Counted from the first letter of the stretch, positions 1 through 30,947 are shown. The stretch is 31,105 nucleotides of DNA from Thermoleophilaceae bacterium (GCA_036280695.1 DASUQG010000354.1:1-31105), one strand, 5' to 3'. A program made the numbers and translations. The notes: a model not told the origin generated them from the letters alone.

Positions 1-831
1 CTCGCGTCGTTCTGCCTGACGGAGCCCGAAGCCGGCTCAGACGTGTCGGCCATGCGCACCACCGCCGTGCGCCGGGGTGACAAGTACGTGATCAACGGAT
101 CGAAGGTGTTCATCAGCAACGGTGGCTACGCCGACTGGTACACGGTCTATGCCAAGACCGACAGGGACGCGGGCCATCGGGGCATCTCCGCCTTCGTCGT
201 CCCGCGCGACGACAGCGTGACGGTCGACAAGCATGAGGACAAGATGGGCCTCCGGGCCTCGAACACCGCGGGGATCAGCTTCAACGACACAGAGGTGCCG
301 GTGGGGAACCTGCTCGGCGACGAGAACCACGGTTTCAAGCTCGCGATGATGACGCTCGACCGTTCGCGCCCCGGCGTCGCCGCGATGGCCACCGGCATAG
401 CCCGCGCCGCCTTCGAGTTCGCCACCGACTACTCGAAACAGCGCGTCCAGTTCGGCGTCCCGATCGCCATGCACCAGGCGATCCAGTTCATGATCGCCGA
501 CATGGCCACCGAGATCGAGGCCGCCCGGCTGCTCACGTGGCAGTCGGCGGTGCTCCTGGATCAGGGCAAGCGCAACACCCTCCAGTCCTCACACGCCAAG
601 CGCTTCGCCGCCGACACGGCCATGAAGGTCGCCACCGACGCCGTGCAGATCTACGGCGGCTACGGCTTCATCAAGGACTACCCGGTCGAGAAGCTGATGC
701 GCGACGCGAAGATCATGCAGCTCTACGAGGGGACCTCGCAGATTCAGCGCCTCGTGATCGCCCGGGAGATCCTCATGCCGCGCACCGTCGAGGAGCCGAC
801 ACGTGCCACACAGCTCGCAGCCGCGGCGTAA
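1..831 (+). CDS. Acyl-CoA dehydrogenase, 5'-truncated by the window edge
   Basis: Frame 1 is open from base 1 (LASFCLTEPEAGSDVSAM). Family motifs: FCLTEPEAGSD, NGSKVFISNG, KMGLRAS, QIYGGYGFIKDYPVEKLMRDAK, YEGTSQIQR. Stop TAA at 829-831. Confidence 0.95.
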   Translation, partial: LASFCLTEPEAGSDVSAMRTTAVRRGDKYVINGSKVFISNGGYADWYTVYAKTDRDAGHRGISAFVVPRDDSVTVDKHEDKMGLRASNTAGISFNDTEVPVGNLLGDENHGFKLAMMTLDRSRPGVAAMATGIARAAFEFATDYSKQRVQFGVPIAMHQAIQFMIADMATEIEAARLLTWQSAVLLDQGKRNTLQSSHAKRFAADTAMKVATDAVQIYGGYGFIKDYPVEKLMRDAKIMQLYEGTSQIQRLVIAREILMPRTVEEPTRATQLAAAA

Positions 832-2750: not shown

Positions 2751-2754
2751 AGTC

Positions 2755-3267
2755 ATGACCTCGACCGATCACATCGATCATCCCCCGTCCGCGGACCGTG
2801 ACGGTCCGCTGCTCATCGGCTACGACGGATCCGAACATGCAAAGCACGCGATTGCGAGCGCTGCAGGCCTGCTCGCCGCAAAGGATGCGATCGTCCTGAC
2901 CGTCTGGCAGCCGGTCTCCGACGTCGGCGCCTTCGCCTGGTACGGGGCGGGTCCAAACATGGTCAATTTCGCCGAGCTCGATCGCGCAGGGGCCGAAGCC
3001 GGCGGGCGCGTCGCCGAGGAGGGCGCTCAGATCGCACGGGAGGCAGGCCTACGGGCCGAGGCCATCGCCATCGAGGCGACCCCGCCCGTCTGGAAGACGA
3101 TTGTCGATACCGCCGATCTCCACGACGCGGCAGCGATCGTGATGGGCTCGCGTGGGCTTTCGGGGCTCCGCTCGCTGCTATTGGGCAGCGTCTCGAACGC
3201 TGTCGTGCACCACGCCGACCGTCCGACACTGGTCATCCACCGCCCCGGCGACGACCACGAGGACTGA
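2755..3267 (+). CDS. Universal stress protein (USP)
   Basis: LLIGYDGSEHAKHA at the N-terminus and IVMGSRGLSGLRSLLLGSVSNAVVHHADRPTLVI at the C-terminus. Start moved from 2713 to the ATG at 2755 based on the promoter position. Confidence 0.92.
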   Translation: MTSTDHIDHPPSADRDGPLLIGYDGSEHAKHAIASAAGLLAAKDAIVLTVWQPVSDVGAFAWYGAGPNMVNFAELDRAGAEAGGRVAEEGAQIAREAGLRAEAIAIEATPPVWKTIVDTADLHDAAAIVMGSRGLSGLRSLLLGSVSNAVVHHADRPTLVIHRPGDDHED

Positions 3268-6672: not shown

Positions 6673-8064
6673 TTACGCGCGCTCGGCAGTCGTGCGGTAG
6701 CGCTCGACGAGCTCCGGCGTGATCCGCTTGAGCTCGCCGGCGGGGAATGCCGCGAGCAACTCCCACGCGAGGTCGAGCGTCTCGATGATCGAGCGCCGCT
6801 GGGTGTCCTGCCCAACGAAGCGCCGCTCGAACTGGTCGACGAAGGCGAGGATGCGGCGGTCGTCGTCGGAGAGCGCCTGCTCGCCGACGATCGAGATCAG
6901 GTTCCGCAACTCGCGGCCGCGCCCGAGGAATGCGGAGATCTGATCGGCGACGCCTCGGTGGTCCTCGCGCGTGTTCCCGTCGCCGATGCCGGCGTTCATC
7001 AGACGGCTGAGAGACGGGAGCACGTCGATGGGAGGCGCGATCCCGCGCCGGTCGAGCTCGCGCGAGAGGACGATCTGGCCCTCGGTGATGTAGCCGGTCA
7101 CGTCGGGTATCGGATGCGTGACGTCGTCGTCGGGCATCGAGAGGATGGGGATCTGCGTCAGTGAGCCCGGCCGGCCGCGGATGCGCCCCGCGCGCTCGAA
7201 CAGCGAGGCGAGATCGGAGTACATGTAGCCCGGATAGCCACGCCGGCCCGGCACCTCGTCGCGAGCGGCGGCAGCCTCGCGCAGCGCCTCACAGTAGTTC
7301 GTCATGTCGACGAGTACGACGAGGACGTGCATTCCGCGCTCGAAGGCGAGGTACTCCGCAGCTGTCAGGGCGGCGCGCGGGCAACTGATCCGCTCCGCTG
7401 CGGGCTCGTCCGCGCGGTTCACGAACAGCACGGAGCGCTCGAGAGCGGCACCCTCGGCGAAGCGCGCGCGCAGGAAGGCGGCCTCGCGATCTGTCACGCC
7501 GATCGCGGCGAAGACCACCACGAACCCCTCGTCCGATGAGGGCACGCGCGCGCTCTCCGCGATCTGCGCAGCCAGTTCGAGCCCCGGCAGGCCGTAGCCG
7601 GAGAAGACCGGCAGCTTCTGGCCGCGGACGAGCGTATGCAGCCCGTCGATCGCCGAGATCCCGGTCTCGATGAACTCGGCCGGATGCGCGCGTGCCACCG
7701 GATTCACCGGCCGCCCGTTGAGGTCGCGCTCCGCCTCGGGCAGAAGCTCGGGCCCGCCGTCGGCGGGCCTGCCCATACCGTCGAAGATCCGCCCGACGAG
7801 GTCGGGACCGACCGGCATGCGTGCCGCGCGGGCGCGGACGAGCACCGCCGTGGAGTCGATGTCGAGCCCGCGCGTGCCGCCGAGCACCTGGACGACCATC
7901 CGGTCGCCCTCGATCTCCAGCACCTGGCCCAGCCGTCGCTCCCCGGAGGGAGTGACCACATCGACGAGCTCGTCGTACGCGACGTGCTCCGCGTGCTCGG
8001 CAATCAGCAGCGGGCCCGACACGTACGTGGTGGTGCGATGTTCGGTCGTGTACAGCCGCGTCAT
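6673..8064 (-). CDS. ntpB: A/V-type ATPase subunit B
   Basis: Start MTRLYTTEH at 8064. ETGISAIDGLHTLVRGQKLPVFSG, DMTNYCEALRE, PGRRGYPGYMYSDL, THPIPDVTGYITEGQI, LPSLSRLM. Confidence 0.96.
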   Translation of the reverse strand: MTRLYTTEHRTTTYVSGPLLIAEHAEHVAYDELVDVVTPSGERRLGQVLEIEGDRMVVQVLGGTRGLDIDSTAVLVRARAARMPVGPDLVGRIFDGMGRPADGGPELLPEAERDLNGRPVNPVARAHPAEFIETGISAIDGLHTLVRGQKLPVFSGYGLPGLELAAQIAESARVPSSDEGFVVVFAAIGVTDREAAFLRARFAEGAALERSVLFVNRADEPAAERISCPRAALTAAEYLAFERGMHVLVVLVDMTNYCEALREAAAARDEVPGRRGYPGYMYSDLASLFERAGRIRGRPGSLTQIPILSMPDDDVTHPIPDVTGYITEGQIVLSRELDRRGIAPPIDVLPSLSRLMNAGIGDGNTREDHRGVADQISAFLGRGRELRNLISIVGEQALSDDDRRILAFVDQFERRFVGQDTQRRSIIETLDLAWELLAAFPAGELKRITPELVERYRTTAERA

Positions 8065-9815
8065 CCGACGGCCTCCAGTTCGCGCTCGATGTCCTTGATC
8101 AGCTCGGCGGCGCGCTCCTCCGCCTGCTCGGCAGGCCACTCGTGCATCCGCGCGAGCGCCGCCAGCGACGGTGCCGCGCCGGCTTCGTCAACCGGTGCGC
8201 CGCGGGTCACCGCGGCGCTCATGGCGGCGTCGGTACGCCGGATCGCCCGCAGCATCGCCAGCTGCTTGGGCGCAGCGCAGTAGGCGTCGCGCTCGTCGAA
8301 CGCGGACTGCTGGAGGAAGTCCTCGCGCAGCAGTCGACCGGTGCGGAGCGTGAGGCGCTCGGGCGGCGCCAGCGTGTCAGGGCCGAGGAGCTGGACGACC
8401 TCGAGCAGCTGCGCCTCGCGCTGGAGCAGCTCGCGAGCCCAGGCGCGCTGCTCCTCCCAGTCGGCCGCCACCTCGCGCTCGAACCAGGCCGCGAAGTCGA
8501 AGAGCGTGTAGCTGCGGTTCCAGTCGATCGCGGGGAAGTGCCGCTGGCGAGCCAGAGTGGTGTCGAGCGCCCAGAACGTGCCCGCCAGGCGCAACGAGTG
8601 CTGCGTGATCGGCTCCGAGAAGTCGCCACCGGCCGGCGAGACCGCGCCGATGATGGTCACCGAGCCCTCGCGGACATCGGATCCCAGGCAGCGGACCGCG
8701 GCAGCCCGCTCGTAGAACTCGGCGAGCCGCGACGACAGGTACGCGGGATAACCCTCCTCGGCCGGCATCTCCTCGAGTCGGCTGGAGACCTCGCGCAGCG
8801 CCTCGCCCCAGCGGCTCGTCGAGTCGGCCATCAGCGCGACGTGGTAGCCCTGGTCGCGGAAGTACTCCGCCAGCGTGACGCCGGTGTAGATCGACGCCTC
8901 CCTGGCAGCGACCGGCATGTTGGACGTGTTCGCGATCAGGATCGTGCGCTCCATCAGGGACGCACCGGTGCGCGGGTCGACGAGCTCCGGGAACTCCTGG
9001 AGCACCTCGGTGAGCTCGTTACCGCGCTCTCCGCACCCGACGTAGATCACCACGTCGGCGTGCGCCCACTTGGCCAGCGACTGCTGGAGCACGGTCTTGC
9101 CGGTGCCGAACCCGCCGGGGATCGTCGCGGCTCCTCCGCGCGCGAGCGGGAACAGGACGTCGATGGCCCGCTGCCCAGTGATCAGCGGCGTCGACGCATC
9201 GAGACGGCCGGCAGCCGGGCGCGGGTCCCGGACGGGCCAGCGGCTCAGCATCTTGAGCGGCTGATCGTCGACCCATACGACCGGGTCGTCCAGCCGCGCC
9301 GGGCCGCGGCGGACGGCTGTGACGACTCCGGCGGTATCCACGGGCACGAGGATCCGGTGCTCGAGTGCTCCCTCGGCGACGATTCCAAGTACGTCCCCGG
9401 CTACCACGGAGTCCCCCGTCGCGACACGCGGCTCGAACGCCCAGGTGCGCTCGCGATCGAGCGCGGGCACGTCGCTGCCGCTTGAGAGCAGCGGCTGCCC
9501 GAACGGGTCGTCCCCGGCTCGGGCGAGCACGTCGAGCGGGCGCTGGGTCCCATCGAAGATGCGGCCGAGCAGGCCGGGACCGAGCTCGACCTCCAACGGA
9601 CGGCCGGTGTCCAGCACGGGCTCGCCGACCCGCAGGCCCGCAGTGTCCTCGTAGACCTGGATCGTGACCCGCTCGCCCTCGAGGCGAATGACCTCGCCTG
9701 GCAGGGCCGCGTCACCTACGCGCACGACGTTGTACAGCCGCACGCCGTCGAGGCCGCGGGCAACCACCACGGGGCCGGCCACCCGCCAGATCTCGCCGTG
9801 CGAGCCGGTCGTCAT
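8061..9815 (-). CDS. ntpA: A/V-type ATPase catalytic subunit A
   Basis: Start MTTGSHGEIWRVAGPVVVA at 9815. P-loop GGFGTGKT, GCGERGNE, ANTSNMPVAAREAS, DSTSRWGEALRE, EEGYPAYL. The longer 832-aa ORF is a spurious extension. Confidence 0.97.
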   Translation of the reverse strand: MTTGSHGEIWRVAGPVVVARGLDGVRLYNVVRVGDAALPGEVIRLEGERVTIQVYEDTAGLRVGEPVLDTGRPLEVELGPGLLGRIFDGTQRPLDVLARAGDDPFGQPLLSSGSDVPALDRERTWAFEPRVATGDSVVAGDVLGIVAEGALEHRILVPVDTAGVVTAVRRGPARLDDPVVWVDDQPLKMLSRWPVRDPRPAAGRLDASTPLITGQRAIDVLFPLARGGAATIPGGFGTGKTVLQQSLAKWAHADVVIYVGCGERGNELTEVLQEFPELVDPRTGASLMERTILIANTSNMPVAAREASIYTGVTLAEYFRDQGYHVALMADSTSRWGEALREVSSRLEEMPAEEGYPAYLSSRLAEFYERAAAVRCLGSDVREGSVTIIGAVSPAGGDFSEPITQHSLRLAGTFWALDTTLARQRHFPAIDWNRSYTLFDFAAWFEREVAADWEEQRAWARELLQREAQLLEVVQLLGPDTLAPPERLTLRTGRLLREDFLQQSAFDERDAYCAAPKQLAMLRAIRRTDAAMSAAVTRGAPVDEAGAAPSLAALARMHEWPAEQAEERAAELIKDIERELEAVG

Positions 9816-10153
9816 TGCCCGCCGCCTTCCTGGCCGAAGGTGATCTCGTACCCGACCGCCTGGCGCAGCATCTGGAGCAGCTGTTCCCGGCGGTCCTGGG
9901 ACTCCTCGACCGTCGTTCCTGCTGGAAGCGCCACCACGAGCGGCGTATCGAGAGCGTCGAGCCGCCGCCGGAGCGGCCGCTCGAGCGCGTGGAAGTACGG
10001 AGCGTGGACCGCGATCACGCCGTCCTCGTGCTCCACCAGCTCCTCGAGCCGAGCGGCGGTCTCCGCGGGCGAGGCGACCTCGAGCGCAGCGGCGCCGGCC
10101 AGCCGGTAGCCGGCCGCCAGCTCTCGCGTCGTCAGGACGAGTAAGCGGCTCAT
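9812..10153 (-). CDS. ntpF: A/V-type ATPase subunit F
   Basis: MSRLLVLTTRELAAGYRLAG matches the GFRLAG-type signature; ends LRQAVGYEI. 4-bp overlaps with both neighbours. Confidence 0.88.
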   Translation of the reverse strand: MSRLLVLTTRELAAGYRLAGAAALEVASPAETAARLEELVEHEDGVIAVHAPYFHALERPLRRRLDALDTPLVVALPAGTTVEESQDRREQLLQMLRQAVGYEITFGQEGGGQ

Positions 10154-11226
10154 GCGCGCGCCTCCGGCATGAGGAGCTCGCGACGGACCACCTCGGGGTG
10201 GATGCCGCGCACGCTCGCCTCGCCAAGGAGCCGGAGGTTCCGCGCCTCGGTCTGCTTGGCGGCGGTGAACGCGATCGGCACGTCGAGCGTGAGCGGGTCG
10301 CCCATGCGGAACAACGCGGCGGCGTCCGCGATGCGGCGCCGCTCCAGCTCGCGTTCCAGGGCGGGAAGGTCGCCGCTCCGCGCCCACCGCTCGAGCGAAG
10401 CCTGCCAGTCGCTGCCGGCACTGCGCGGGAGCGCGCTGATGACCGCGGCCGGCGCGGGGGCGCGCACGGCCGCCACGAAGCGAGCGAGCGGAACTGACCC
10501 GCCCGGAAGCAGCGCGCGCTCCGGCACCATGTCAACGGCGGCGCCCGAAGCCCGGGCATCGTGCACCCGCAGCGCCACTAACAGGTTGCGCTCGTCGATT
10601 GCCCGCCGCGCGAACCGCAGCAGCGTCCGGGCGTCCGGCCCGGCGGACGCGAGCGTGGCGGTCACGTGCGCGGCGTGGGCGGCGAGGACAGCGTGCTCGA
10701 GCGCCGCGAGGTTCCCCGTGCGTTCGAATTCGCCGAGCGCCGTACGTAAGGCGCCGGTCTGCTCGGTGTCTGGGATCCGGCGCAAGATCAGGTCGACCGC
10801 GCCCGCGAGCTCCGGCCCGCGAAGGATCTCGCTGGCGAGCGGCTCGACCAGCCAGCCCACCGGCAAGAGCGAGGCAAGCGCCTCGTCGGCCGGGCGCTGT
10901 GTGCCCGCCCGGGCGCGCAGCATGAGGACGACGTTCTCGACGTCGAAGCGCGAGAGCATGAGGTTGACGAGCTCGCGCGCCCGGTCGGCATAGAAGCCGC
11001 GCATCTCCTCGAGCGATCGGCCAAGGTGGGCTCTGATCGCCTCGTGGAGGCGACGAAGACCTGTCTCGTCGCGGGCCAGCACGATGTCGGACGCGTACGG
11101 GGTTCGCTCGAGCGCAGCGAGGAGGGCATCGATGTCCTCGCCGAGAAGCTGCTCGTAGTCAGCGACGTCCAGCAGCGCCGCACGGCGTGCGTGCAGACGC
11201 GTATTGCCGTAGACGAAGTCGCTCAT
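10150..11226 (-). CDS. ntpC: A/V-type ATPase subunit C (d/AC39)
   Basis: Starts FVYGNTRLHARRAALL; RFDVENVVLMLR; C-terminal EARNLRLL. Size and operon position also fit. Confidence 0.88.
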   Translation of the reverse strand: MSDFVYGNTRLHARRAALLDVADYEQLLGEDIDALLAALERTPYASDIVLARDETGLRRLHEAIRAHLGRSLEEMRGFYADRARELVNLMLSRFDVENVVLMLRARAGTQRPADEALASLLPVGWLVEPLASEILRGPELAGAVDLILRRIPDTEQTGALRTALGEFERTGNLAALEHAVLAAHAAHVTATLASAGPDARTLLRFARRAIDERNLLVALRVHDARASGAAVDMVPERALLPGGSVPLARFVAAVRAPAPAAVISALPRSAGSDWQASLERWARSGDLPALERELERRRIADAAALFRMGDPLTLDVPIAFTAAKQTEARNLRLLGEASVRGIHPEVVRRELLMPEARA

Positions 11227-11783
11227 TTGAGCCTTTCCGCGAAGCGCTGGCGGAGCAGCAGCTCGGCGTTGGCAAGTCGCTCCTCGAGCGTGTCCCGGAT
11301 CGTTCGCCCGTCATCGCTCGCCAGCTCGACGCCACCCCAGGTGTCGAGCGTCGGCTCGATGCGGAGATCGGGGGCAACAGTGCCGGCGAGGTCGGCATCG
11401 AGCGGGTCGACGTGGAGCTCGCACGCATTTGGCAATCCGGCCCGGCTCTCGGCGACGAGCGCGTGGAAGAGCTTGGGGTAGGCGCTCGTCTCGCGCACGG
11501 CAGCGAGCTCGGCCCGGATCCCGGACAGCAGCGACAAGAATGCCTGCTCGCGTGCCGACCGAACAGTGGCCGCGGCGTCGAGGCGCGCCAGGGCAAGCTC
11601 ATGCGCGGCCGCGCGGCGACCCTCGGCCGCGCCCGCCTCGGTGAGCTCCGCCTCGAGCGCCCGAGCGTCGCGGCGGGCGTCCTCGACCACGGCTGCCGCC
11701 GCGGCCGCCGCCTCGTCGGCGGCGCGAGCGCGGTCCGCATCCGCCTCGGTCTCGATGGCTCGCAATAGGTCCCTGAGCGCCAT
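11223..11783 (-). CDS. ntpE: A/V-type ATPase subunit E
   Basis: Ala/Glu-rich coiled-coil N-terminus and C-terminal WGGVELASDDGRTIRDTLEERL. Confidence 0.85.
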   Translation of the reverse strand: MALRDLLRAIETEADADRARAADEAAAAAAAVVEDARRDARALEAELTEAGAAEGRRAAAHELALARLDAAATVRSAREQAFLSLLSGIRAELAAVRETSAYPKLFHALVAESRAGLPNACELHVDPLDADLAGTVAPDLRIEPTLDTWGGVELASDDGRTIRDTLEERLANAELLLRQRFAERLK

Positions 11784-11785
11784 GG

Positions 11786-12001
11786 TCAGAGCAGCACGAT
11801 CAGCATTGCCGCCACCGCGAAGCCGAGGATGACGAGGGTCTCGGGGATAGCCACCAGCAGGATCGCGCGACCGGCCATCTCGGGCCGCTCAGCGATCAGC
11901 CCCATCGCCGCCGCGCCGATGCGCGCCTGCGCGTAGCCGGTCGCGAGGCCGGCGAGCCCGACCGCCAGCGCCGCCCCGATCGCAATCAGTCCTGTCTCCA
12001 T
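11786..12001 (-). CDS. ntpK: A/V-type ATPase proteolipid subunit K/c (single hairpin, 71 aa)
   Basis: METGLIAIGAALAVGLAGLATGYAQARIGAAAMG...AIPETLVILGF, with one conserved Glu. GGAG RBS. Confidence 0.93.
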   Translation of the reverse strand: METGLIAIGAALAVGLAGLATGYAQARIGAAAMGLIAERPEMAGRAILLVAIPETLVILGFAVAAMLIVLL

Positions 12002-12012
12002 CTTCTGCTCCT

Positions 12013-13944
12013 TCAGCTCGTGGGTTGGGTATCGGCGCCGGGTGGGCGCCCGAAGGGTGTGAACTCGCGGCCGCCGCCGACGAAGAACGTGTCGAAGAAC
12101 TCGACGTAGTGGAGGCGCAGCGCCTGGATCGTGGGACTGAACGCGGCCAGGGCGACGTTCATCGCGTGGAAGAAGGTCGCGACGAGCACGCCCATCCAGA
12201 TCGGACCGATCGTCCCCAGCTCGTTGGCGACGGCCGCCAGGTGTGCGGACGCCAGCCCGACGGCCGCGATCCGGAGGTAGGAGAGCACCTTGCCGAGCGT
12301 GCCGATCAGCTCCAGCGGGCCCGTGATCATGCCGATCGCCCCGTGCAGTGACATCACGAGAACCACCCCGACGACCGCTGCGGCCACCGCGGGGGTGAGG
12401 GCGCCGGACGGGAGATGGCCAGCCGCCCACCCGGCGAGGCCGAACAGGCCGCCGAGCACGAGCAGCACGCCGAGCTTGTCGAACAGCTCGCGACCCTCCC
12501 CGAAGCGGATCGCCTCCAACGCGCCCAGTGCGAGCCCGAGGACCACGTGGGCTGCGCCCATCGCTACGGCGAGCAGGAGCAGCGGCTCGAGCGTGTCGGC
12601 GGCGGGCCTGTAGCGCCACACTGCCCAGTCTCCGAACACCCGCTGGCCGAGATCCCCGAAGAGCTCGCCGAACAGGACGCCGAAGACGATCGACCACACC
12701 GCGCCCGCAACCAGGACCCAACTGAGGCGCGCGAGAAGCGGCGTGCGCACGCGATACGCGCGACGGGCGACGAGCGCGATGGCCAGCAGCACCGCGCCGT
12801 AGCCGACGTCTCCGACCATGGCCCCGAACATCAGCGGGAGGAACAGCGCCATCATGAGCGTGGGGTCGAGCGCGCCGGCGCGCGGAAGCTCGAGGAAGCT
12901 GACCAGCGGCTCGAACGGGCGGGCGAGGCGCGAGTTCCGCATCAGCACCGGCGCGTCGGGGTCGCGTGGGGAGGGCGCCGTGTCCTCGACGACGACCGCC
13001 GTGCCGAGCCGAGCCTCGACCTCCTCGCGCAGCGCCGCGAGCTGGCGGCGGGGCACCCAGCAGTCGGCGATGAAGGCGCGCTGTGTGACGCCCACCCGTC
13101 CGACGGCCTCGAGCCGCTCGAGCTCACCGGCGATGCCCGCGCGCAGCTCACGGAGCCGCCCGGCATGCGGCACCAGCAGCGCCCGGCGCCGGTCTTCGGC
13201 AGCGGCGATCGCCTGCGGGAGCTCGGCCAAGCGGCGCTCGATCGCGTCGACGGCTGCGTGCAGCGAGAGATGCTCGAACGCCTCGGGGAGCGCGACATGG
13301 CGAACCTGCGCGCGCCCGAGCAGCGCCTGCACGGCGGCGCGGTCGGCGTAGGGGAACACGATCAGGCAGCCGATGGCGCCCGCCTCGATGCGCGTCGACA
13401 GCAGCGCGAACTTCTTGCCGAGCTCCTCGCTCAGCTGCCCGCGGAGCGTCTGCACCACAAGCTCGTCCTCGGTGTTGAGCACCAGCGCGACGGTGCCCAG
13501 TCGAAGCTGGCGAAGAGCCTCGTCGTCGAGCTCGGCGAGCTCGGGAACCAGCGGCAACAGCCGCCGCAGCGGCTCGAGATAGCCGGGAAGCACGAGACGC
13601 TCGTCGCGGAGCGCCTCCAGGCACCGCCGCAGCTCATCGACAGGGGTGGAGATTCGATCGAGCTCATCCTTGAGCGCGTTGAGATCGAGCGCGTGCTCGA
13701 CCCTGTCCGCCTGCCCCGCGCCTGCCGCGTCGAGCTCCGCCAACAGGCCGTCCGCCTGCGCCGCGAGGGAACGGAGATCGTCGCGGCGCGACGCACGCAG
13801 CTTCTCGCCGCGCAGTCCCTCGATCCCGTTCGCACCCCGGGCGTCGGCGATCTCCACGCGTCCGAGACGCTGGAGCTCGGTGACGGCGCGCTCGACCTCG
13901 CGGCGGGGGCCGAGTATCTGGGCTTTCGTCATCGGTACGAGCAC
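12013..13944 (-). CDS. ntpI: A/V-type ATPase subunit I (a)
   Basis: Soluble N-terminal half, then LDPT...FLPLMFGAMVGDVGYG, multiple TM segments, essential Arg in LSYLRIAAVGL, and IQALRLHYVEFF. Confidence 0.95.
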   Translation of the reverse strand: MLVPMTKAQILGPRREVERAVTELQRLGRVEIADARGANGIEGLRGEKLRASRRDDLRSLAAQADGLLAELDAAGAGQADRVEHALDLNALKDELDRISTPVDELRRCLEALRDERLVLPGYLEPLRRLLPLVPELAELDDEALRQLRLGTVALVLNTEDELVVQTLRGQLSEELGKKFALLSTRIEAGAIGCLIVFPYADRAAVQALLGRAQVRHVALPEAFEHLSLHAAVDAIERRLAELPQAIAAAEDRRRALLVPHAGRLRELRAGIAGELERLEAVGRVGVTQRAFIADCWVPRRQLAALREEVEARLGTAVVVEDTAPSPRDPDAPVLMRNSRLARPFEPLVSFLELPRAGALDPTLMMALFLPLMFGAMVGDVGYGAVLLAIALVARRAYRVRTPLLARLSWVLVAGAVWSIVFGVLFGELFGDLGQRVFGDWAVWRYRPAADTLEPLLLLAVAMGAAHVVLGLALGALEAIRFGEGRELFDKLGVLLVLGGLFGLAGWAAGHLPSGALTPAVAAAVVGVVLVMSLHGAIGMITGPLELIGTLGKVLSYLRIAAVGLASAHLAAVANELGTIGPIWMGVLVATFFHAMNVALAAFSPTIQALRLHYVEFFDTFFVGGGREFTPFGRPPGADTQPTS

Positions 13945-13947
13945 GCT

Positions 13948-14286
13948 CTATGCCCCCACATGCAGCAACAGCTCCGTGAGCTCGGCGATCAACGGTTCGC
14001 GGTCGGCGGACGAGCGCCGGCGGAGCTCCTCCGCCCGAGCGATGCCGTCGGCGCGGATCGCGGCGGCCTCCGCCTCCGCCTCGGCCACCAGCGCGCTCTG
14101 GCGACCGCGGGCCGCCTTGCGCCCGGCCTCGCGCGCGCTCGCGAGCAGGCGATCAGCCTCCGCGCGGGCCGCGGCGAGCGCGTCCTCGGCCACGTCACGC
14201 GCGCCGTCGCGCTCCTCGAGCGCGCTCTCGAGTCGCTGGACGGCTGTCAGCGCATCGAGTGGCGGAGGATCCCTCTGGACAGTCAT
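13948..14286 (-). CDS. Probable A/V-type ATPase peripheral stalk subunit G/H
   Basis: 112-aa Ala/Glu/Arg coiled coil (AARAEADRLLASARE...AEAEAEAAAIRA) directly upstream of subunit I. Assigned by position and composition. Confidence 0.7.
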   Translation of the reverse strand: MTVQRDPPPLDALTAVQRLESALEERDGARDVAEDALAAARAEADRLLASAREAGRKAARGRQSALVAEAEAEAAAIRADGIARAEELRRRSSADREPLIAELTELLLHVGA

Positions 14287-14921
14287 CGCCCGACACCCGC
14301 CAGGGCGCCCTTGGAGCGCATGCGACGCAGCCGCACGCGATCCTCCATCTCGCGCTCCTCGAGGACCAGCGCGATGCGCGCGCGCTCTGCCTCGAGCCTC
14401 GGGACGACCACGTGCTCGAGCGCGTTCATCCGGCGCGTGGTTCGCGCGATCTCGTTCGCAAGCCGGCGTACCGAGAGCTCTAGCGCCGCAACGTCGAGCA
14501 GCCGGTCCAGCACCGCCTCGAAGCGCTCGGCCACGCTGTCGATGCGCGCGGTCGTGCCCGCGAGGCTGTAGCCGCGATCAGTCCGTGCCCGGGCGACTGT
14601 GCCCTTCGCGATCTCGACGACCCCGATCCCGGCCACGTTCCGCGTCTGCAGGCTCAGCTCGACCTCCCCCTGGGCGGCGAACGCCGCCGACTCGACCGGC
14701 TCGAGGCCACTCGCGGCGACCGTCAGCCCGAGGAACCGCCCGGCGTCGGCCGCGTCACGGTCGAGCACGTCCAGCGACTCGAGGGCCGAGGCGCCGAGGT
14801 GATTGAACTCGCGCACCAACGCGCTGCGTCGCTCCTTGAGCAGGTCCCGCCCCTGAGCGGCAAGCCGGATCTCCGCCTTGCGGGCGAGCAACTCGCTCCT
14901 CGTCGGACTCACTGGGGCCAT
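14283..14921 (-). CDS. ntpD: A/V-type ATPase subunit D
   Basis: PTRSELLARK...QGRDLLKERRSAL; LANEIARTTRRMNALEHVVVP; LEERE. Start placed at the ATG at 14921 because the 14930 ATG lies inside the -10 hexamer. Confidence 0.93.
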   Translation of the reverse strand: MAPVSPTRSELLARKAEIRLAAQGRDLLKERRSALVREFNHLGASALESLDVLDRDAADAGRFLGLTVAASGLEPVESAAFAAQGEVELSLQTRNVAGIGVVEIAKGTVARARTDRGYSLAGTTARIDSVAERFEAVLDRLLDVAALELSVRRLANEIARTTRRMNALEHVVVPRLEAERARIALVLEEREMEDRVRLRRMRSKGALAGVGR

Positions 14922-14928
14922 ACACGAC

Positions 14929-14974
14929 ATCGTGCACCCCGGCCGTCCTCGCGACTATGGGTCTGAATACCGAT
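14929..14974 (-). promoter_or_regulatory. Motif-1 promoter of the ATPase operon: ATCGGT-ATTCAG-ACCCAT, N22, CACGAT
   Basis: The plus strand at 14957-14974 reads ATGGGT-CTGAAT-ACCGAT, the best palindrome of the set. The -10 is at 14934-14929 and the ATG at 14921. Confidence 0.8.
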
Positions 14975-15045
14975 CTGGGCCCCGGGCGCGTACCACGGTG
15001 CCTGTCTCAGCTATCGCGATCGGGTCTCCTCATGGCGCCGGTCGC

Positions 15046-15717
15046 TCATCGCTCCGGGGGTTCGGCGATCTCGTAGAGGTCGTCGCCGAGCTGCCTGATC
15101 CTTCCGCTGGAGACGGCGTCGGCGACGGCCCGCCTGCCGCCCCCATCGGACCAGTGCGCCGCTCCGCACAGCGCGAGGAGGCGTGCGCGAGTGAGGACTC
15201 CGTATCCGCTGAGCGTGCGCACGACGGCCTCGACTTCGGCCTCCTGTCGGCTGTGAGACCGTCGCGACGAATGGTCTGGCGAAAGCTCGCTGCGCACGCT
15301 GATCTTCACGTTGCCGCGCAGCGCGTTGGAGACTGGGCAGAGATCGCCTGCCGATTCGACGATCCGCGTGAGGTCGGCCGCCTGGAGACCGGGCACCTGT
15401 GCCCGGATCGCGAGTTCGATCGTGGTTATGCGCGGCGCACCGTCCACCTCGTCGAGTGTGCAGGTGGCCTTCACCGCCAGGCGCTCCGGCGGCGTCTTGT
15501 TCTTTCCGAGGACAAGGGCAAGGGCCATCGCGAAGCAGCTCGCATGCGCGGCCGCGATCAGCTCCTCGGGGCTCGTCTGGCCTTCCGGTCGCCCGGTCCG
15601 CGACGCCCACGTCACCCGGAGCTTGTTCAGGGCGTCGCTTCCGCTCGTCAGCCTCCCGGTTCCGCCTCCCAGCGGCCCCTCCCAGAGGATCTCGGCTTCA
15701 CGTAGTGCTACCGGCAT
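15046..15717 (-). CDS. osmC: OsmC-family peroxiredoxin with a C-terminal extra domain of about 80 aa
   Basis: AEILWEGPLGGGTG, TSPEELIAAAHASCFAMAL and LCPVSNAL, with both Cys present. The frame continues without a stop into EAEVEAVVRTL...LYEIAEPPER. Confidence 0.85.
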   Translation of the reverse strand: MPVALREAEILWEGPLGGGTGRLTSGSDALNKLRVTWASRTGRPEGQTSPEELIAAAHASCFAMALALVLGKNKTPPERLAVKATCTLDEVDGAPRITTIELAIRAQVPGLQAADLTRIVESAGDLCPVSNALRGNVKISVRSELSPDHSSRRSHSRQEAEVEAVVRTLSGYGVLTRARLLALCGAAHWSDGGGRRAVADAVSSGRIRQLGDDLYEIAEPPER

Positions 15718-16231
15718 GGTTCGCCTTCCTGTTTGCGTGGGGCCGGTGCGGTGACGCGTATGCGCCCACCGGCGCCCGCATCGAGATCGCCAACCGGTTC
15801 CAGCCGTTGATGGCCACGACAGCGAGCGTGAGCGCGACGATCTCTTCCGCCGAGAAGCTCTCCTCGAGCTTCTCGTAGACGGCGTCGGGCGCACCAGCTT
15901 CAGAGATCAAGGTGAGGTGCTCGCACCAGGCCAAGGCCGCCCGCTCACGCTCGTCGTAGCAGGGGGCGTCGCGCCACGCGGCGAGCAGGTGCAGCCGCTG
16001 CTCCGACTCGCCGAGCGCGCGGGCGTCCTTGGAGTGCACGTCGAGGCAATGCGCGCAGCCGTTGATCTGCGACGCCCTGATCTTCACGAGCTCGAGCAGC
16101 CGTGGCTCGAGCTCGGCCACGTCGACGGCGCGCTGCAGGCCGACCATGGCACGAACGCCAGCCGGGAAGACCCTGGTGTAGTCGATCCGCGGTGGCTCGG
16201 CTGGAGTGGTTGTCGGCTCGTCGGTATGCAT
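15698..16231 (-). CDS. CMD / AhpD-like protein (YdfG-like)
   Basis: LLELVKIRASQINGCAHCLDVH, YDERERAALAWCEHLT, INGWNRLAI. Start at M19 of the track ORF (16231) or at 16237. Confidence 0.9.
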   Translation of the reverse strand: MHTDEPTTTPAEPPRIDYTRVFPAGVRAMVGLQRAVDVAELEPRLLELVKIRASQINGCAHCLDVHSKDARALGESEQRLHLLAAWRDAPCYDERERAALAWCEHLTLISEAGAPDAVYEKLEESFSAEEIVALTLAVVAINGWNRLAISMRAPVGAYASPHRPHANRKANHAGSTT

Positions 16232-16239
16232 CTCCATGA

Positions 16240-16285
16240 AGCGTGCCGACGCGAGGACTCCTACGGTATGGACGAAACCGCCCAT
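16240..16285 (-). promoter_or_regulatory. Motif-1 promoter: ATGGGC-GGTTTC-GTCCAT, N22, CACGCT
   Basis: Palindrome at 16268-16285, hexamer at 16245-16240, ATG at 16231. Faces the CMD-osmC pair. Confidence 0.6.
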
Positions 16286-16618: not shown

Positions 16619-18346
16619 TCAGAGGCTGCGAGGCGCGATCGGCTGCGCCACAGTGCCGGCGGCCGAGTGCGCCGCGCCGACCTCGCGCCGGATGTCTTTC
16701 ATGGGTTCGACGCTGCGCACTCTCGGGATAACGTCGAAGTTGTTCGGGGGCGGCGGGGACTGGGTGAACCACTCGAGGGTGTTGCCCTGCCACGGGTCGT
16801 TCCCGGCCCGCGGGCCGTGCCTGCTGCTCCACAGCAGGTTCACCACGACCATCACCACGCCGATGGCGAGCACGAACGATCCGATGGTCGAGATCAGGTT
16901 GTAGGTGGACACGCCGAGCGACGAGTCGTAGTCGTAAATGCGTCGTGGCATTCCCGACAGGCCCGCCGAGTGCTGGATCAGGAAGGTGACGTTGAACCCC
17001 ACGAACATGGTCCAGAACGACAGCTTGCCGAGCGCCTCCGAGAACATCCGGCCGGTGAACTTGGGGAACCAGTAGTAGAGCCCGCCCATGAGCGCGAAGG
17101 CGGAGCCTCCGAACAGCACGTAGTGGAAGTGGGCGACGATGAAGTAGGTGTCGTGCAGGTACCAGTCGACAGGAAAGATGGCCATCATCACGCCCGTGAT
17201 GCCGCCGATCGGAAACAGCGCGAGGAAGCCTGCCGCGAACAACAACGGTGTCTTGAGGAGGATCGAGCCGCGCCAGAGCGTGGCGATCCAGTTGAAGATC
17301 TTGATGCCGGTCGGCACCGCGATCGTGAACGACGAGAGCATGAAGAACGCCAGCACGACGGTCGGCGTCGGGGTCGCGAACATGTGGTGCGCCCAGACCA
17401 GCGCACTGAGGAATGCGATCGCCACGGTCGAGACCGCGATCGCCTTGTAGCCGAAGATCGGCTTGCGGGCGAACACCGGCAAGACCTCCGAGATGATGCC
17501 GAACGCGGGCAGCACCATGATGTAGACCTCGGGGTGGCCGAAGAACCAGAACAGGTGCTGCCACAGCAGCGGGTCGCCGCCGGCGGAGGGGTCGAAGAAG
17601 CCGGTGCCGAAGTGGCGGTCTGTGAGCAGCATGGTCACCGCGGCAGTGAGCGACGGGAGCGCCAGGATCAGCAGGTAGGCGTAGACCAGCATCGACCAGA
17701 TGAACAGCGGCAGGCGGCCCCAGCTCATACCCGGTGCCCGCATGTTGTGGATCGTGGCTACGAAGTTGATCGCGCCGAGGATCGAGGACAGGCTGGTTAG
17801 GTGCACCATCATGATCCACGCATCGATCCCGCCGCCGGGCGAGTAGGCGTCGTCGGAAAGCGGTGCGTAGGAGGTCCAGCCCGCCTGCGGGGGCTCAAAG
17901 AAGAGGCTGGCGTAGAACACGACGCCGCCGAACAGCAGTAGCCAGAACGAGAGCGCGTTCAGCTTCGGGAACGCCATGTCGCGGGCCCCGATCATCAGCG
18001 GCACCAGGTAGTTGCCGAAGCCGGCCCATATCGGCACGAGCGACAGGAAGATCATCGTTGACCCGTGCATGGAGAGGAGGCCGTTGTATGTCTCCGGGTC
18101 GATCAGCGTGTTGTTGGGCGCCGCGAGCTGTGAGCGCATCAGGAGCGCCTCGACTCCGCCCAACAGCAGGAACAGCACGGTGAGGACCAGGTACATGATC
18201 CCGATCCGCTTGTGGTCCGTCGTCGTAAGCCAGCCGAGCCAGCCGCGCGGCTCCGACCTCAGCCCGTGCAGGGCCAGCTCGGGACGCGCGGTGGCTGACC
18301 CCGTGCGTGTCGAGGCATGCGCTGACGTCGAGAGCCGCACCTTCAC
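16619..18346 (-). CDS. ctaD: Cytochrome c oxidase subunit I (heme-copper oxidase, A1 type); start approximate (GTG at 18346 or 18340)
   Basis: TTTDHKRIG, SMHGSTM, GARDMAFPKLN, WFFGHPEVY, VWAHHMF, IAVPTGIKIF, VAHFHYV, GMPRRI. The track's 660-aa ORF includes a non-homologous N-terminal extension. Confidence 0.95.
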   Translation of the reverse strand: MKVRLSTSAHASTRTGSATARPELALHGLRSEPRGWLGWLTTTDHKRIGIMYLVLTVLFLLLGGVEALLMRSQLAAPNNTLIDPETYNGLLSMHGSTMIFLSLVPIWAGFGNYLVPLMIGARDMAFPKLNALSFWLLLFGGVVFYASLFFEPPQAGWTSYAPLSDDAYSPGGGIDAWIMMVHLTSLSSILGAINFVATIHNMRAPGMSWGRLPLFIWSMLVYAYLLILALPSLTAAVTMLLTDRHFGTGFFDPSAGGDPLLWQHLFWFFGHPEVYIMVLPAFGIISEVLPVFARKPIFGYKAIAVSTVAIAFLSALVWAHHMFATPTPTVVLAFFMLSSFTIAVPTGIKIFNWIATLWRGSILLKTPLLFAAGFLALFPIGGITGVMMAIFPVDWYLHDTYFIVAHFHYVLFGGSAFALMGGLYYWFPKFTGRMFSEALGKLSFWTMFVGFNVTFLIQHSAGLSGMPRRIYDYDSSLGVSTYNLISTIGSFVLAIGVVMVVVNLLWSSRHGPRAGNDPWQGNTLEWFTQSPPPPNNFDVIPRVRSVEPMKDIRREVGAAHSAAGTVAQPIAPRSL

Positions 18347-18365
18347 ATCGGGATGGTTGGCGACC

Positions 18366-18821
18366 TTACAGAGACTCGGGCGTGCGTGGCCCCTCGGAAT
18401 GGCGGGCGCGCCCGGTGCTGAGGTGCCGTCGAGCTGGACCGCCGGCCGGCGCGTGAGCGATTCGAGCCGGTAGGGGGGAAGGTCGCGCCCTTTCAATCGA
18501 CGATGCGCCTGGCCGTCTACCGGCCCTGAGCCGACGCTCAACCGGGTTGCTCTCATCGCACGCTCGGCCGCCGGGGGCCTGCCCTTCCGCATCGGGCTCA
18601 TCGCCCTCAGACAGCGCCGCGCCGACCGCGCTCACCAGTACTGCGATCGCGACGATCAGGTACAGGACAGCGAGCCCCAGTACCCAGCCGGCGTCCGTCA
18701 GGCCCAGCAGCGCGACGGGCGCGACCACCAATCCGAGGCAAACCGCGCTGACGATCAGCAGAGCCGGGTAGCCTGCCGTCTCCGCCGCGCGGAGGGAATT
18801 GAGGATGGGGTTGCCTCGCAT
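18366..18821 (-). CDS. Small two-TM membrane protein with a low-quality tail
   Basis: MRGNPILNSL, then two long hydrophobic stretches (PALLIVSAVCLGLVVAPVALLG; WVLGLAVLYLIVAIAVLVSAVGAAL). The last ~70 codons use many A/T-ending codons. Confidence 0.5.
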   Translation of the reverse strand: MRGNPILNSLRAAETAGYPALLIVSAVCLGLVVAPVALLGLTDAGWVLGLAVLYLIVAIAVLVSAVGAALSEGDEPDAEGQAPGGRACDESNPVERRLRAGRRPGASSIERARPSPLPARIAHAPAGGPARRHLSTGRARHSEGPRTPESL

Positions 18822-27491: not shown

Positions 27492-27537
27492 ATGCAGGCT
27501 GGTACCCATTCACATCGCGCCCGCGGGCGGCGACCAT
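27492..27537 (+). promoter_or_regulatory. Motif-1 promoter: ATGCAG-GCTGGT-ACCCAT, N22, GACCAT
   Basis: ATG at 27545 after a 7-nt gap. Near-identical to the 2138 site over about 25 bp. Confidence 0.75.
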
Positions 27538-27544
27538 TGGGTAC

Positions 27545-27949
27545 ATGGTCCACCACGACATCAGCCGGCCCAGATCCGGGACTTCCGGACCGAATTCTGC
27601 CGTTGCGCAGGCCACGCTTGATCGCATACTCGAGCTGTTCGAACGGCGCAAGCTTTCCGCCACGGAACTGCGCGTACTGCTTGCCCTGATCGATCGCGGA
27701 GCGGGGGTGTCGGATCTGGCCGAGGCGCTCGATCAGAGCCCCGATGAGATCACCCGCGTGGGCCGAAGCCTCTCCATGCGCGGGCTGATCCGCTGGCATC
27801 ACGTGGGCCCGCGCAAAGAGACGCGTTTCGACATCACCAGCGCCGGGTTGACGACGGCGCGCGCGCTGCTCACAGCGGTCGGTGCGACCGACGCTGACGC
27901 TGACAGACCCGAGGCGGCCACGACGACATCTCCACTACGTGCTACGTGA
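27545..27949 (+). CDS. MarR-family winged-helix regulator
   Basis: LSATELRVLLAL, VSDLAEAL, ITRVGRSLSMRGLIR, FDITSAG. Confidence 0.8.
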   Translation: MVHHDISRPRSGTSGPNSAVAQATLDRILELFERRKLSATELRVLLALIDRGAGVSDLAEALDQSPDEITRVGRSLSMRGLIRWHHVGPRKETRFDITSAGLTTARALLTAVGATDADADRPEAATTTSPLRAT

Positions 27950-29699: not shown

Positions 29700-30199
29700 G
29701 CCGCGCGTTGAAGCTGCCAGCCGCCCGCGCCTGGCTCATCGAGCGCCATGCGGGCGGAGCGGAGAGCGTGACGGAGGTCGCCCTCCCGATAGAGCGGGCC
29801 TTGCGTGTCGCTGACCAAACGGGCCGTCATGGCGGCACCGCGCACGTCGATCGGACGCCCGTCGCACAGACGCTCTATGAGCGGGACGAGCTCGTCGAGG
29901 TTTCGCTTGAGAGCTGTGCGCCTCGGTCGTGCTCCGACTGTCAGGAGCTCACGAGTACGGCCGGCAACCAAGGGGTCAACGAGCGTGTTGGCGAGCCCAG
30001 CCCGTACGGGTTCGGAACGAAGCTGCGACGCACGCACGCTGAGGTCCGCGCTGGCGCGTGGGTCGGCACCCGCTGAGAGCTCCTCGTCAAGCTGCTTGCG
30101 TCTCCATCGGGTCCGCATCCGCGCCGAGGGGCGAGAAGGCTCGCGGGCGGGGCGCGGCGGCGTGTCGAATTCGGGGAGTGGGAACGGCCCGAGCGGCAT
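29696..30199 (-). CDS. Hypothetical protein, paralog of 2190..2750
   Basis: QLDEELSAGADPRASADLSVRASQL and LIERLCDGRPIDVRGAAMTARLVSDTQGPLY. AGGAG RBS and a motif-1 promoter. Confidence 0.78.
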   Translation of the reverse strand: MPLGPFPLPEFDTPPRPAREPSRPSARMRTRWRRKQLDEELSAGADPRASADLSVRASQLRSEPVRAGLANTLVDPLVAGRTRELLTVGARPRRTALKRNLDELVPLIERLCDGRPIDVRGAAMTARLVSDTQGPLYREGDLRHALRSARMALDEPGAGGWQLQRAA

Positions 30200-30228: not shown

Positions 30229-30274
30229 ATCGTGCGCTGCGGGCCGTGCGTTCCCTATGGGTACGAGTGTGGAT
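30229..30274 (-). promoter_or_regulatory. Motif-1 promoter: ATCCAC-ACTCGT-ACCCAT, N22, CACGAT
   Basis: Half-site at 30262-30257 and -10 at 30234-30229, followed by a short leader with an RBS. Confidence 0.72.
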
Positions 30275-30901: not shown

Positions 30902-30947
30902 ATCGTGGACGTCGCAAGGGCCCCCGCCCATGGGTACAGACGACCAT
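30902..30947 (-). promoter_or_regulatory. Motif-1 promoter: ATGGTC-GTCTGT-ACCCAT, N22, CACGAT
   Basis: ATG at 30895 after a 6-nt gap. Confidence 0.75.

Follow-up and report, generated by a model that had tools for sequence, protein, structure and literature searches.

What does a member of the Thermoleophilaceae do with a V/A-type rotary ATPase if, as a first-pass annotation of this locus stated, Actinobacteria generally use the F-type enzyme (F1Fo)? The question is raised by a 31,105-nt stretch of DNA (GCA_036280695.1, DASUQG010000354.1:1-31105; hereafter the window), which is contig C354, with a GC content of 70%, of the metagenome-assembled genome (MAG) G000 (2.74 Mb in 414 contigs, 69.6% complete, estimated contamination 2.1%). 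Taking the evidence as a whole, we consider it quite probable that the window encodes an intact, accessory V/A-type rotary ATPase of an Actinomycetota subfamily, and that its operon has captured the promoter of gap, the gene for GAPDH.

Nine uninterrupted, co-oriented genes occupy the minus strand between positions 6673 and 14921 in the order D-H/G-like-I-K-E-C-F-A-B, and start and stop codon mapping places 4-bp overlaps at five of their eight junctions. The first-pass annotation had described a nine-gene A/V-type ATPase operon with mostly 4-bp overlaps, and both parts of that description stand, with all subunit types of the Thermus-type V/A-ATPase assigned to genes (Table 1). The translation of subunit A contains the Walker A (GGFGTGKT), GERGNE and MADSTSRW motifs and matches Thermus thermophilus subunit A over its full length (E=1e-202); by Pfam it combines the P-loop with the V/A-specific inserted domain, and B is its non-catalytic partner. 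The rotor subunits D, F and C(d) score above the cut-offs of PF01813, PF01990 and PF01992, and the best PDB match of subunit K is the T. thermophilus V/A c subunit, with identical AQARIGAA and PETLVI motifs. Because of these subunit identities and the intact catalytic and ion-translocation motifs, we read the operon as a complete, apparently functional Thermus-type V/A-ATPase.

The peripheral stalk pair, E and G/H, gave no profile match above cut-off and was assigned from position, size and the label given to homologues by JGI. Subunit E matches PF01991 weakly (E=0.0011, below the cut-off), and tblastn finds a counterpart of its gene in Rubrobacter, Deinococcus and Sysuimicrobiota loci. The 112-aa product of the second gene has no match in Pfam and none in a PDB sequence search, where the chance coiled-coil matches obtained were discarded; JGI annotates its homologues as ‘vacuolar-type H+-ATPase subunit H’, and its gene immediately precedes I, the site of G/H in canonical operons. 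Two start codons were also placed with the help of relatives. Subunit D most likely begins at ATG 14921 (212 aa) and not at 14930, because the bases around 14930 form a -10-like hexamer, CACGAT, and because D of the relatives begins M(T/R)QVSPTRSELL; subunit I most likely begins at ATG 13932, giving 639 aa as in relatives. We looked for an intrinsic terminator 3' of B and found none.

In the architecture that we propose, an A3B3 head would be combined with a D-F-C(d) rotor, E and H/G stalks and an I(a) stator, and the c-ring would consist of single-hairpin 71-aa c subunits with one carboxylate (E54) each. Because the ion-site residues are those of the proton-coupled T. thermophilus ATP synthase, the enzyme is most likely H+-coupled, able to make ATP and reversible in principle. 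It could instead run mainly in reverse, as an ATP-driven pump of H+ or other cations that under stress would stabilize pH, ion balance or proton-motive force in the manner of the Enterococcus hirae V-ATPase. Such a role would suit a V/A enzyme that coexists with F1Fo, and elsewhere in the clade the operon has a P-type cation ATPase gene adjacent or translationally coupled to it; mycobacterial F1Fo, moreover, is a poor ATP hydrolase, so that a dedicated pump would have a place. However, the c subunit of this locus forms a single hairpin, its two helices sharing one carboxylate, and has the ion-site motif of the T. thermophilus synthase, whereas dedicated pumps (E. hirae and eukaryotic V-ATPases) have duplicated four-helix c subunits (2bl2). 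We therefore regard a mainly pumping enzyme as possible but doubtful; the adjacent P-type ATPases of the clade keep an ion-pumping role in play, though Pfam scans found no such gene in the window.

The element directly upstream of the operon is an imperfect palindrome with one mismatch to ATGGGT-N6-ACCCAT (motif 1), and it is the best motif-1 match in the window, where the first-pass annotation had already located it. Plain palindrome matches in the window are in modest excess (10 versus 4.4 expected). The composite pattern CCAT-N22-SACNAT occurs six times (2152-2183, 2717-2748, 14929-14960, 27506-27537, 30229-30260 and 30902-30933) against 0.22 expected, a count reached in 0 of 100 shuffles. 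In alignment, these sites share a fixed layout of palindrome, 22 nt, SACNAT, 6-7 nt and ATG (29 nt at one of the six), and the six promoters are otherwise unrelated in sequence; about a dozen of the kind are found assembly-wide, on contigs C354, C395, C255 and C285. As a sequence pattern, this promoter class is real. Three universal stress protein (USP) genes lie in the window, and the claim that the operon is under the same promoter motif as the USP genes is correct for one of them; a second has only a degenerate variant. Another palindrome (16268-16285) overlaps the opening ATG of the long CMD open frame; by the spacing rule, the true CMD start would be near 16237 (window 16231-16285).

The origin of the ATPase promoter can be traced among relatives. 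Approximately 80 nt around the palindrome are conserved between the ATPase promoters of the MAG, of a second carrier in the genus (G073) and of two metagenomic contigs (L009 and L129), and the promoter of the full-length gap gene of the genus-mate G070; within this alignment the palindrome itself is invariant. G070 has two copies of the promoter on one contig (L140 = G070:C2, 4697-4714 and 12372-12389), one before a full gap gene and the other before a truncated gap fragment upstream of OsmC. Between promoter and D, G073 (L141 = G073:C24, 40-247) retains an open frame of 27 codons, MTVREGINGFGRTGR..., corresponding to the GAPDH N-terminus; in L009 and L129, 8-9 gap codons (MTQVAIV...) are left, and the MAG retains none, its D start codon now lying 7 nt after the -10-like hexamer. 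Because of this homology to the G070 gap promoter and the gap remnants in relatives, we take it as directly evidenced by the sequences that the operon came to lie behind a duplicate of the host gap promoter, after which the leftover gap fragment decayed. The suggestion in the first-pass annotation that the operon was wired into a host regulon gains support both from this capture and from the promoter class that the operon shares with a USP gene.

Table 1. Features of the window, with strand and the basis of each assignment
Feature	Position	Strand	Basis or remark
Subunit D, central stalk, 212 aa	14283-14921	-	PF01813, 137 bits
Putative peripheral-stalk subunit H (archaeal name) / G (Thermus name), 112 aa	13948-14286	-	Position and homologue label; Ala/Arg/Glu-rich, helical-looking sequence
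Subunit I (a), membrane stator, 639 aa	12013-13932	-	PF01496; SYLRIAAVGLA arginine motif in translation
Subunit K (c), 71 aa	11786-12001	-	PF00137; single hairpin, Q25 and P53-E54-T55
Subunit E, peripheral stalk, 186 aa	11223-11783	-	Weak PF01991 match, position and size
Subunit C (d), rotor socket	10150-11226	-	PF01992, 141 bits
Subunit F, central stalk	9812-10153	-	PF01990, 31.8 bits
Catalytic subunit A	8061-9815	-	PF00006, PF16886, PF22919, PF02874
Non-catalytic subunit B	6673-8064	-	PF00006, PF22919, PF02874
Imperfect palindrome, 18 bp, ATGGGTCTGAATACCGAT; gene strand ATCGGTATTCAGACCCAT	14957-14974	-	1 mismatch to motif 1
-10-like hexamer CACGAT	14929-14934	-	22 nt downstream of palindrome, 7 nt upstream of ATG 14921
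Promoter-class target: gene of unknown function	2190
Promoter-class target: USP gene	~2748
Promoter-class target: ATPase operon	ATG 14921	-
Promoter-class target: small winged-helix regulator	27545-27949
Promoter-class target: paralogue of unknown-function family	ends at 30199
Promoter-class target: Gre-factor paralogue
Variable 15.7-kb segment	3254-18967		Missing at syntenic site of genus-mates G011, G049 and G014

The palindrome suggests a candidate activator site. We propose that a dimeric activator would bind there, centred ~42-44 nt upstream of the predicted transcription start, in a class II-type activation, and that transcription from this promoter, which has no -35 element, would yield a leaderless mRNA; the mRNA of subunit D is probably of this kind. 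Alternatively, the upstream element might be part of an alternative-sigma promoter of the extracytoplasmic function (ECF) type, or a meaningless inheritance from the duplicated gap promoter. Across the left half, relatives read GGTAAG-N18-GTATTC, which resembles GGTAAG-N18-GC(A/T)(A/T)A, and this half-site is weakly conserved across the class. However, the spacing to SACNAT and the position of the start codon at five of the six promoters are fixed, and the GGTAAG-like hexamer is not kept in G073 or G070, where the palindrome is unchanged, so that we think both versions unlikely. A SigF/SigB-type reading, with GGGTAT as the -10, was dropped as it had no fit on either strand.

Returning to a palindrome read as an activator site, we compared it with the DevR/DosR (OsdR) box, tested as the 20-bp TTSGGGACTWWAGTCCCSAA. 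Motif 1 shares the GGG/CCC spacing of that box, and the ATPase copy reads CGG in its left half; within 350 nt upstream of the operon the best match to the box was 14/20, with no GGG-N8-CCC, and none of nine related loci scanned exceeded 14/20. L009 encodes, beside USP genes, a NarL-family response regulator with a HisKA_3 kinase, and motif-1-type promoters (16266-16283 and 18408-18491) flank the pair; a 95% orthologue of this regulator lies on a short contig of the MAG (C238, L146) with the same promoter adjoining. Its identification as a DevR orthologue was rejected, the protein being at least as close to VraR or NarL as to DevR. The NarL-family regulator and the winged-helix protein at 27545, itself a target of the promoter class, are candidate binding factors.

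An F-type enzyme appears to be present in the same genome. A 7674-nt contig of the MAG (C348) encodes F-type a, c, b and delta and ends 86 nt past delta, before alpha. The first-pass annotation had proposed an accessory second ATPase and a search of the genome for an F1Fo operon, and because these four F-type genes occur in the same MAG, the accessory status of the V/A enzyme is supported. The survey of distribution that it also proposed shows that the V-type C subunit rarely occurs in the genus, being present in 2 of 81 species genomes (G000 and G073) and in none of the 27 that are at least 90% complete; F-type gamma was found in 21 of 24 genus-mates. G073 likewise encodes F-type b, delta and alpha, and F-type gamma accompanies the V/A enzyme in Rubrobacter marinus, an Actinomycetes MAG and a Caldilineaceae MAG. 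That the V/A enzyme is the sole housekeeping ATP synthase, F1Fo having been lost, is scarcely credible: the assembly has no F-type gamma, alpha or beta, but it is just 69.6% complete, its F-type contig stops immediately after delta, and the other carrier in the genus has both enzymes' genes. At the level of the phylum the premise with which we opened is overstated, since a V-type C subunit was found in 72 of 296 high-quality genomes sampled across Actinomycetota, and V/A enzymes are thus not exotic there.

The operon lies in a 15.7-kb segment together with genes for CMD, glyoxalase, HxlR, SnoaL, NMO, OsmC, a second CMD and a COX1 paralogue. In the three genus-mates without the segment, the DNA matching window positions 1-797 (acyl-CoA dehydrogenase), 2754-3253 (USP) and 18968 onward (patatin, GH15 and others) is contiguous, and for this reason we interpret the segment as an indel. 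Both flanks have 79-91% DNA identity to genus-mates and the same gene order, which assigns the contig to the genus, and the GC content of the operon (72.0%) compares with 70.9 +/- 1.3% for the genome. Neither a tRNA gene nor a direct or inverted repeat of at least 10 nt was found flanking the segment, and Pfam scans of the window found no integrase or transposase. The metagenomic contigs L009 and L129, with A subunits 92-95% identical to that of the window, have the same island context.

Among the matches listed, to which the following identities refer, the closest A subunits are metagenomic proteins (91-95%), with 91% for a Thermoleophilaceae MAG, 80-82% for Pseudonocardia, Actinophytocola and Actinoplanes, 78% for a Gaiellaceae MAG and 70% for Rubrobacter marinus. 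The phylogeny called for in the first-pass annotation was run for subunit A (maximum likelihood, quick search, LG+G4) and recovered an Actinomycetota-only clade (SH-aLRT 100) comprising Rubrobacter, Gaiellaceae, Thermoleophilaceae and Pseudonocardiales; its sister is a Caldilineaceae MAG, Deinococcota and their allies branch next, and Archaea, Chloroflexota, Spirochaetota and Bacillota are placed in other parts of the tree. Gene order agrees with this grouping. The canonical order is (G/H)-I-K-E-C-F-A-B-D, and the D-first arrangement of the window is a rearrangement with no component missing. Every Actinomycetota-clade locus examined has D-H-I-K-E-C-F-A-B, and D is last in Thermus, Deinococcus, Sysuimicrobiota and Caldilineaceae loci; because the sister groups have D last, the D-first order marks the Actinomycetota clade.

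Lateral acquisition, as suggested in the first-pass annotation, is therefore partly upheld: the indel and plasmid-borne relatives speak for it, but the nearest relatives are all Actinomycetota and the GC content is native, which points to transfer within the phylum, or to loss as the source of the patchiness. These sequences give no support to a recent import from outside the phylum. Since clade copies are plasmid-borne in Rubrobacter and Pseudonocardia, spread on plasmids within the phylum is plausible. Although a patchy distribution is expected from contamination or recent transfer and the MAG has an estimated contamination of 2.1%, a misbinned contig or a recent import from Archaea or Deinococcota is very improbable given flanks that match several genus-mates in the same order, an operon GC content near that of the genome, and nearest A subunits that are all from Actinomycetota (78-95% identity, versus 50-58% for Deinococcota and archaea, among matches listed). 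Between G000 and G073, F-type delta shows 73% identity and the V-type subunits 80-94%, a comparison that is uninformative on transfer because the subunits evolve at different rates.

Several individual loci of the clade have features of their own. Plasmid 1 of Rubrobacter radiotolerans (L150, NZ_CP007515.1) has a complete D-first operon with USP, GAF and P-type ATPase genes on its flanks. The plasmid of Pseudonocardia broussonetiae (L151, NZ_CP053565.1) has a truncated F-A-B remnant beside an integrase (tyrosine recombinase). A P-type cation ATPase gene is found on both plasmids (L150 12393-15176 and L151 12324-15176), follows subunit B with a 4-bp overlap on a JGI contig (L145 12161-14950), and also follows B in a Gaiellaceae locus (L144, 16921 onward). 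On the 99-kb metagenomic contig L129, subunit A (10001-11756) is split by gene calling into pieces of 507 and 64 aa, which reflects either an assembly frameshift or a real disruption.

Several points weigh against our interpretation of an accessory, stress-wired synthase. Sequence does not tell whether the enzyme works as a synthase or as a pump. F-type alpha, gamma, beta and epsilon are not in the assembly, which is 69.6% complete, so that a complete F1Fo in this genome is inferred with its F1 part not seen. The left half of the palindrome is poorly conserved within the promoter class, so that this candidate binding site may fail to be a genuine dimer site. ATGGGT-N6-ACCCAT was not found upstream of the Pseudonocardia operon, the sole locus outside the genus that was scanned, and the regulation is lineage-specific. 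Lastly, two RNA libraries (X19 and X20) contain short contigs over parts of the operon with 90-97% identity, one of them identical over 237 nt, but as possible DNA carry-over or RNA of relatives these are at most a weak hint of expression.

The genes around the operon, namely USPs, AhpD-like CMD, OsmC, a GH15 trehalase-like enzyme, patatin, transaldolase, GTP cyclohydrolase I, the extra COX1 and the Gre paralogue, suggest a general stress or dormancy set. We propose that the V/A operon would be co-induced with this stress-type set and would sustain ATP or proton-motive force when respiration is limited; hypoxia, starvation and pH stress, named in the first-pass annotation, are candidate triggers. 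Near-identical DNA is present in soil, rhizosphere and root metagenomes of about ten studies. An HhH-GPD (AlkA-like) DNA glycosylase gene stands between OsmC and the ATPase promoter on L009 (829-1770) and L129 (3836-4780) and is absent from the corresponding site of the window (14931-15045). The OsmC-bearing open frame (15046-15894) has ~80 extra codons beyond the domain, with a tail that has no Pfam match. The extra cytochrome oxidase subunit I gene (16619-18601) has a second copy with 82% DNA identity elsewhere in the MAG (G000:C387, 1171-2846).

The type of enzyme is well known and is already annotated by pipelines in these bacteria. Among its closest counterparts is the T. thermophilus V/A ATP synthase (A3B3DF-d-c12-a-E2G2; operon atpG-I-L-E-C-F-A-B-D), which has the same nine subunit types as assigned here, a single-hairpin c with the same Q...PET ion-site motif and the same H/G-I-K-E-C-F-A-B order. 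Compared with a Thermus locus, A and B share 56% identity and I, C, F and D share 27-39%; D is last there and first here, and the V/A enzyme is the only ATP synthase of Thermus, whereas here it is accessory to F1Fo and behind a stress-type promoter. Annotated actinobacterial V/A operons (for example those of Pseudonocardia sp. Cha107L01, Rubrobacter marinus, R. radiotolerans plasmid 1, and Thermoleophilaceae and Gaiellaceae MAGs) share the D-first order, a c subunit of 71 aa, an H/G-like gene for roughly 112 aa and A subunits that are 68-95% identical, and several have a USP gene nearby; they differ in that many have an adjacent P-type cation ATPase, which the window lacks, and in that the DNA upstream of the Pseudonocardia operon lacks motif 1. 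The E. hirae Na+ V-ATPase (ntp operon), to whose subunit A that of the window aligns with E=1e-182, is a V-type enzyme present beside a housekeeping F1Fo and induced only under certain conditions; its NtpK is a duplicated four-helix Na+-binding c (2bl2), unlike the single hairpin of Thermus H+ type found here. Whole rotary-ATPase operons also move as accessory adaptive modules in the V-type operons of acidophilic and deep-sea Thaumarchaeota and in the bacterial N-ATPases, though these involve other lineages and other subunit families, and thaumarchaeal A subunits (about 50-55% identical among matches listed) belong to another part of the tree. Our literature search found no paper on the actinobacterial V/A clade; an A/V-type ‘gain’ is mentioned in passing in a Melissospora study (PMC12451618).

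What is new is thus the context and regulation and not the machine itself, namely the D-first marker of the clade and the series of gap-promoter capture, in which remnants of 27, then 8-9, then 0 codons give a stepwise view of an acquired operon joining a resident regulon. As a broader and tentative idea, which we think rather unlikely, soil Actinomycetota may keep a mobile, sometimes plasmid-borne, second V/A ATP synthase that each lineage plugs into its own stress or dormancy regulon, here by way of the gap promoter. If this were true and the c-ring were large and Thermus-like, the H+/ATP ratio would be higher than that of F1Fo, and dormant or energy-starved cells could go on making ATP when the proton-motive force has fallen below what the F-type enzyme requires. 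To the question of how non-growing soil bacteria maintain their energy supply, a stress-wired second rotary ATPase beside F1Fo is a candidate answer, and a testable one because cultured carriers exist (Rubrobacter radiotolerans and Pseudonocardia).

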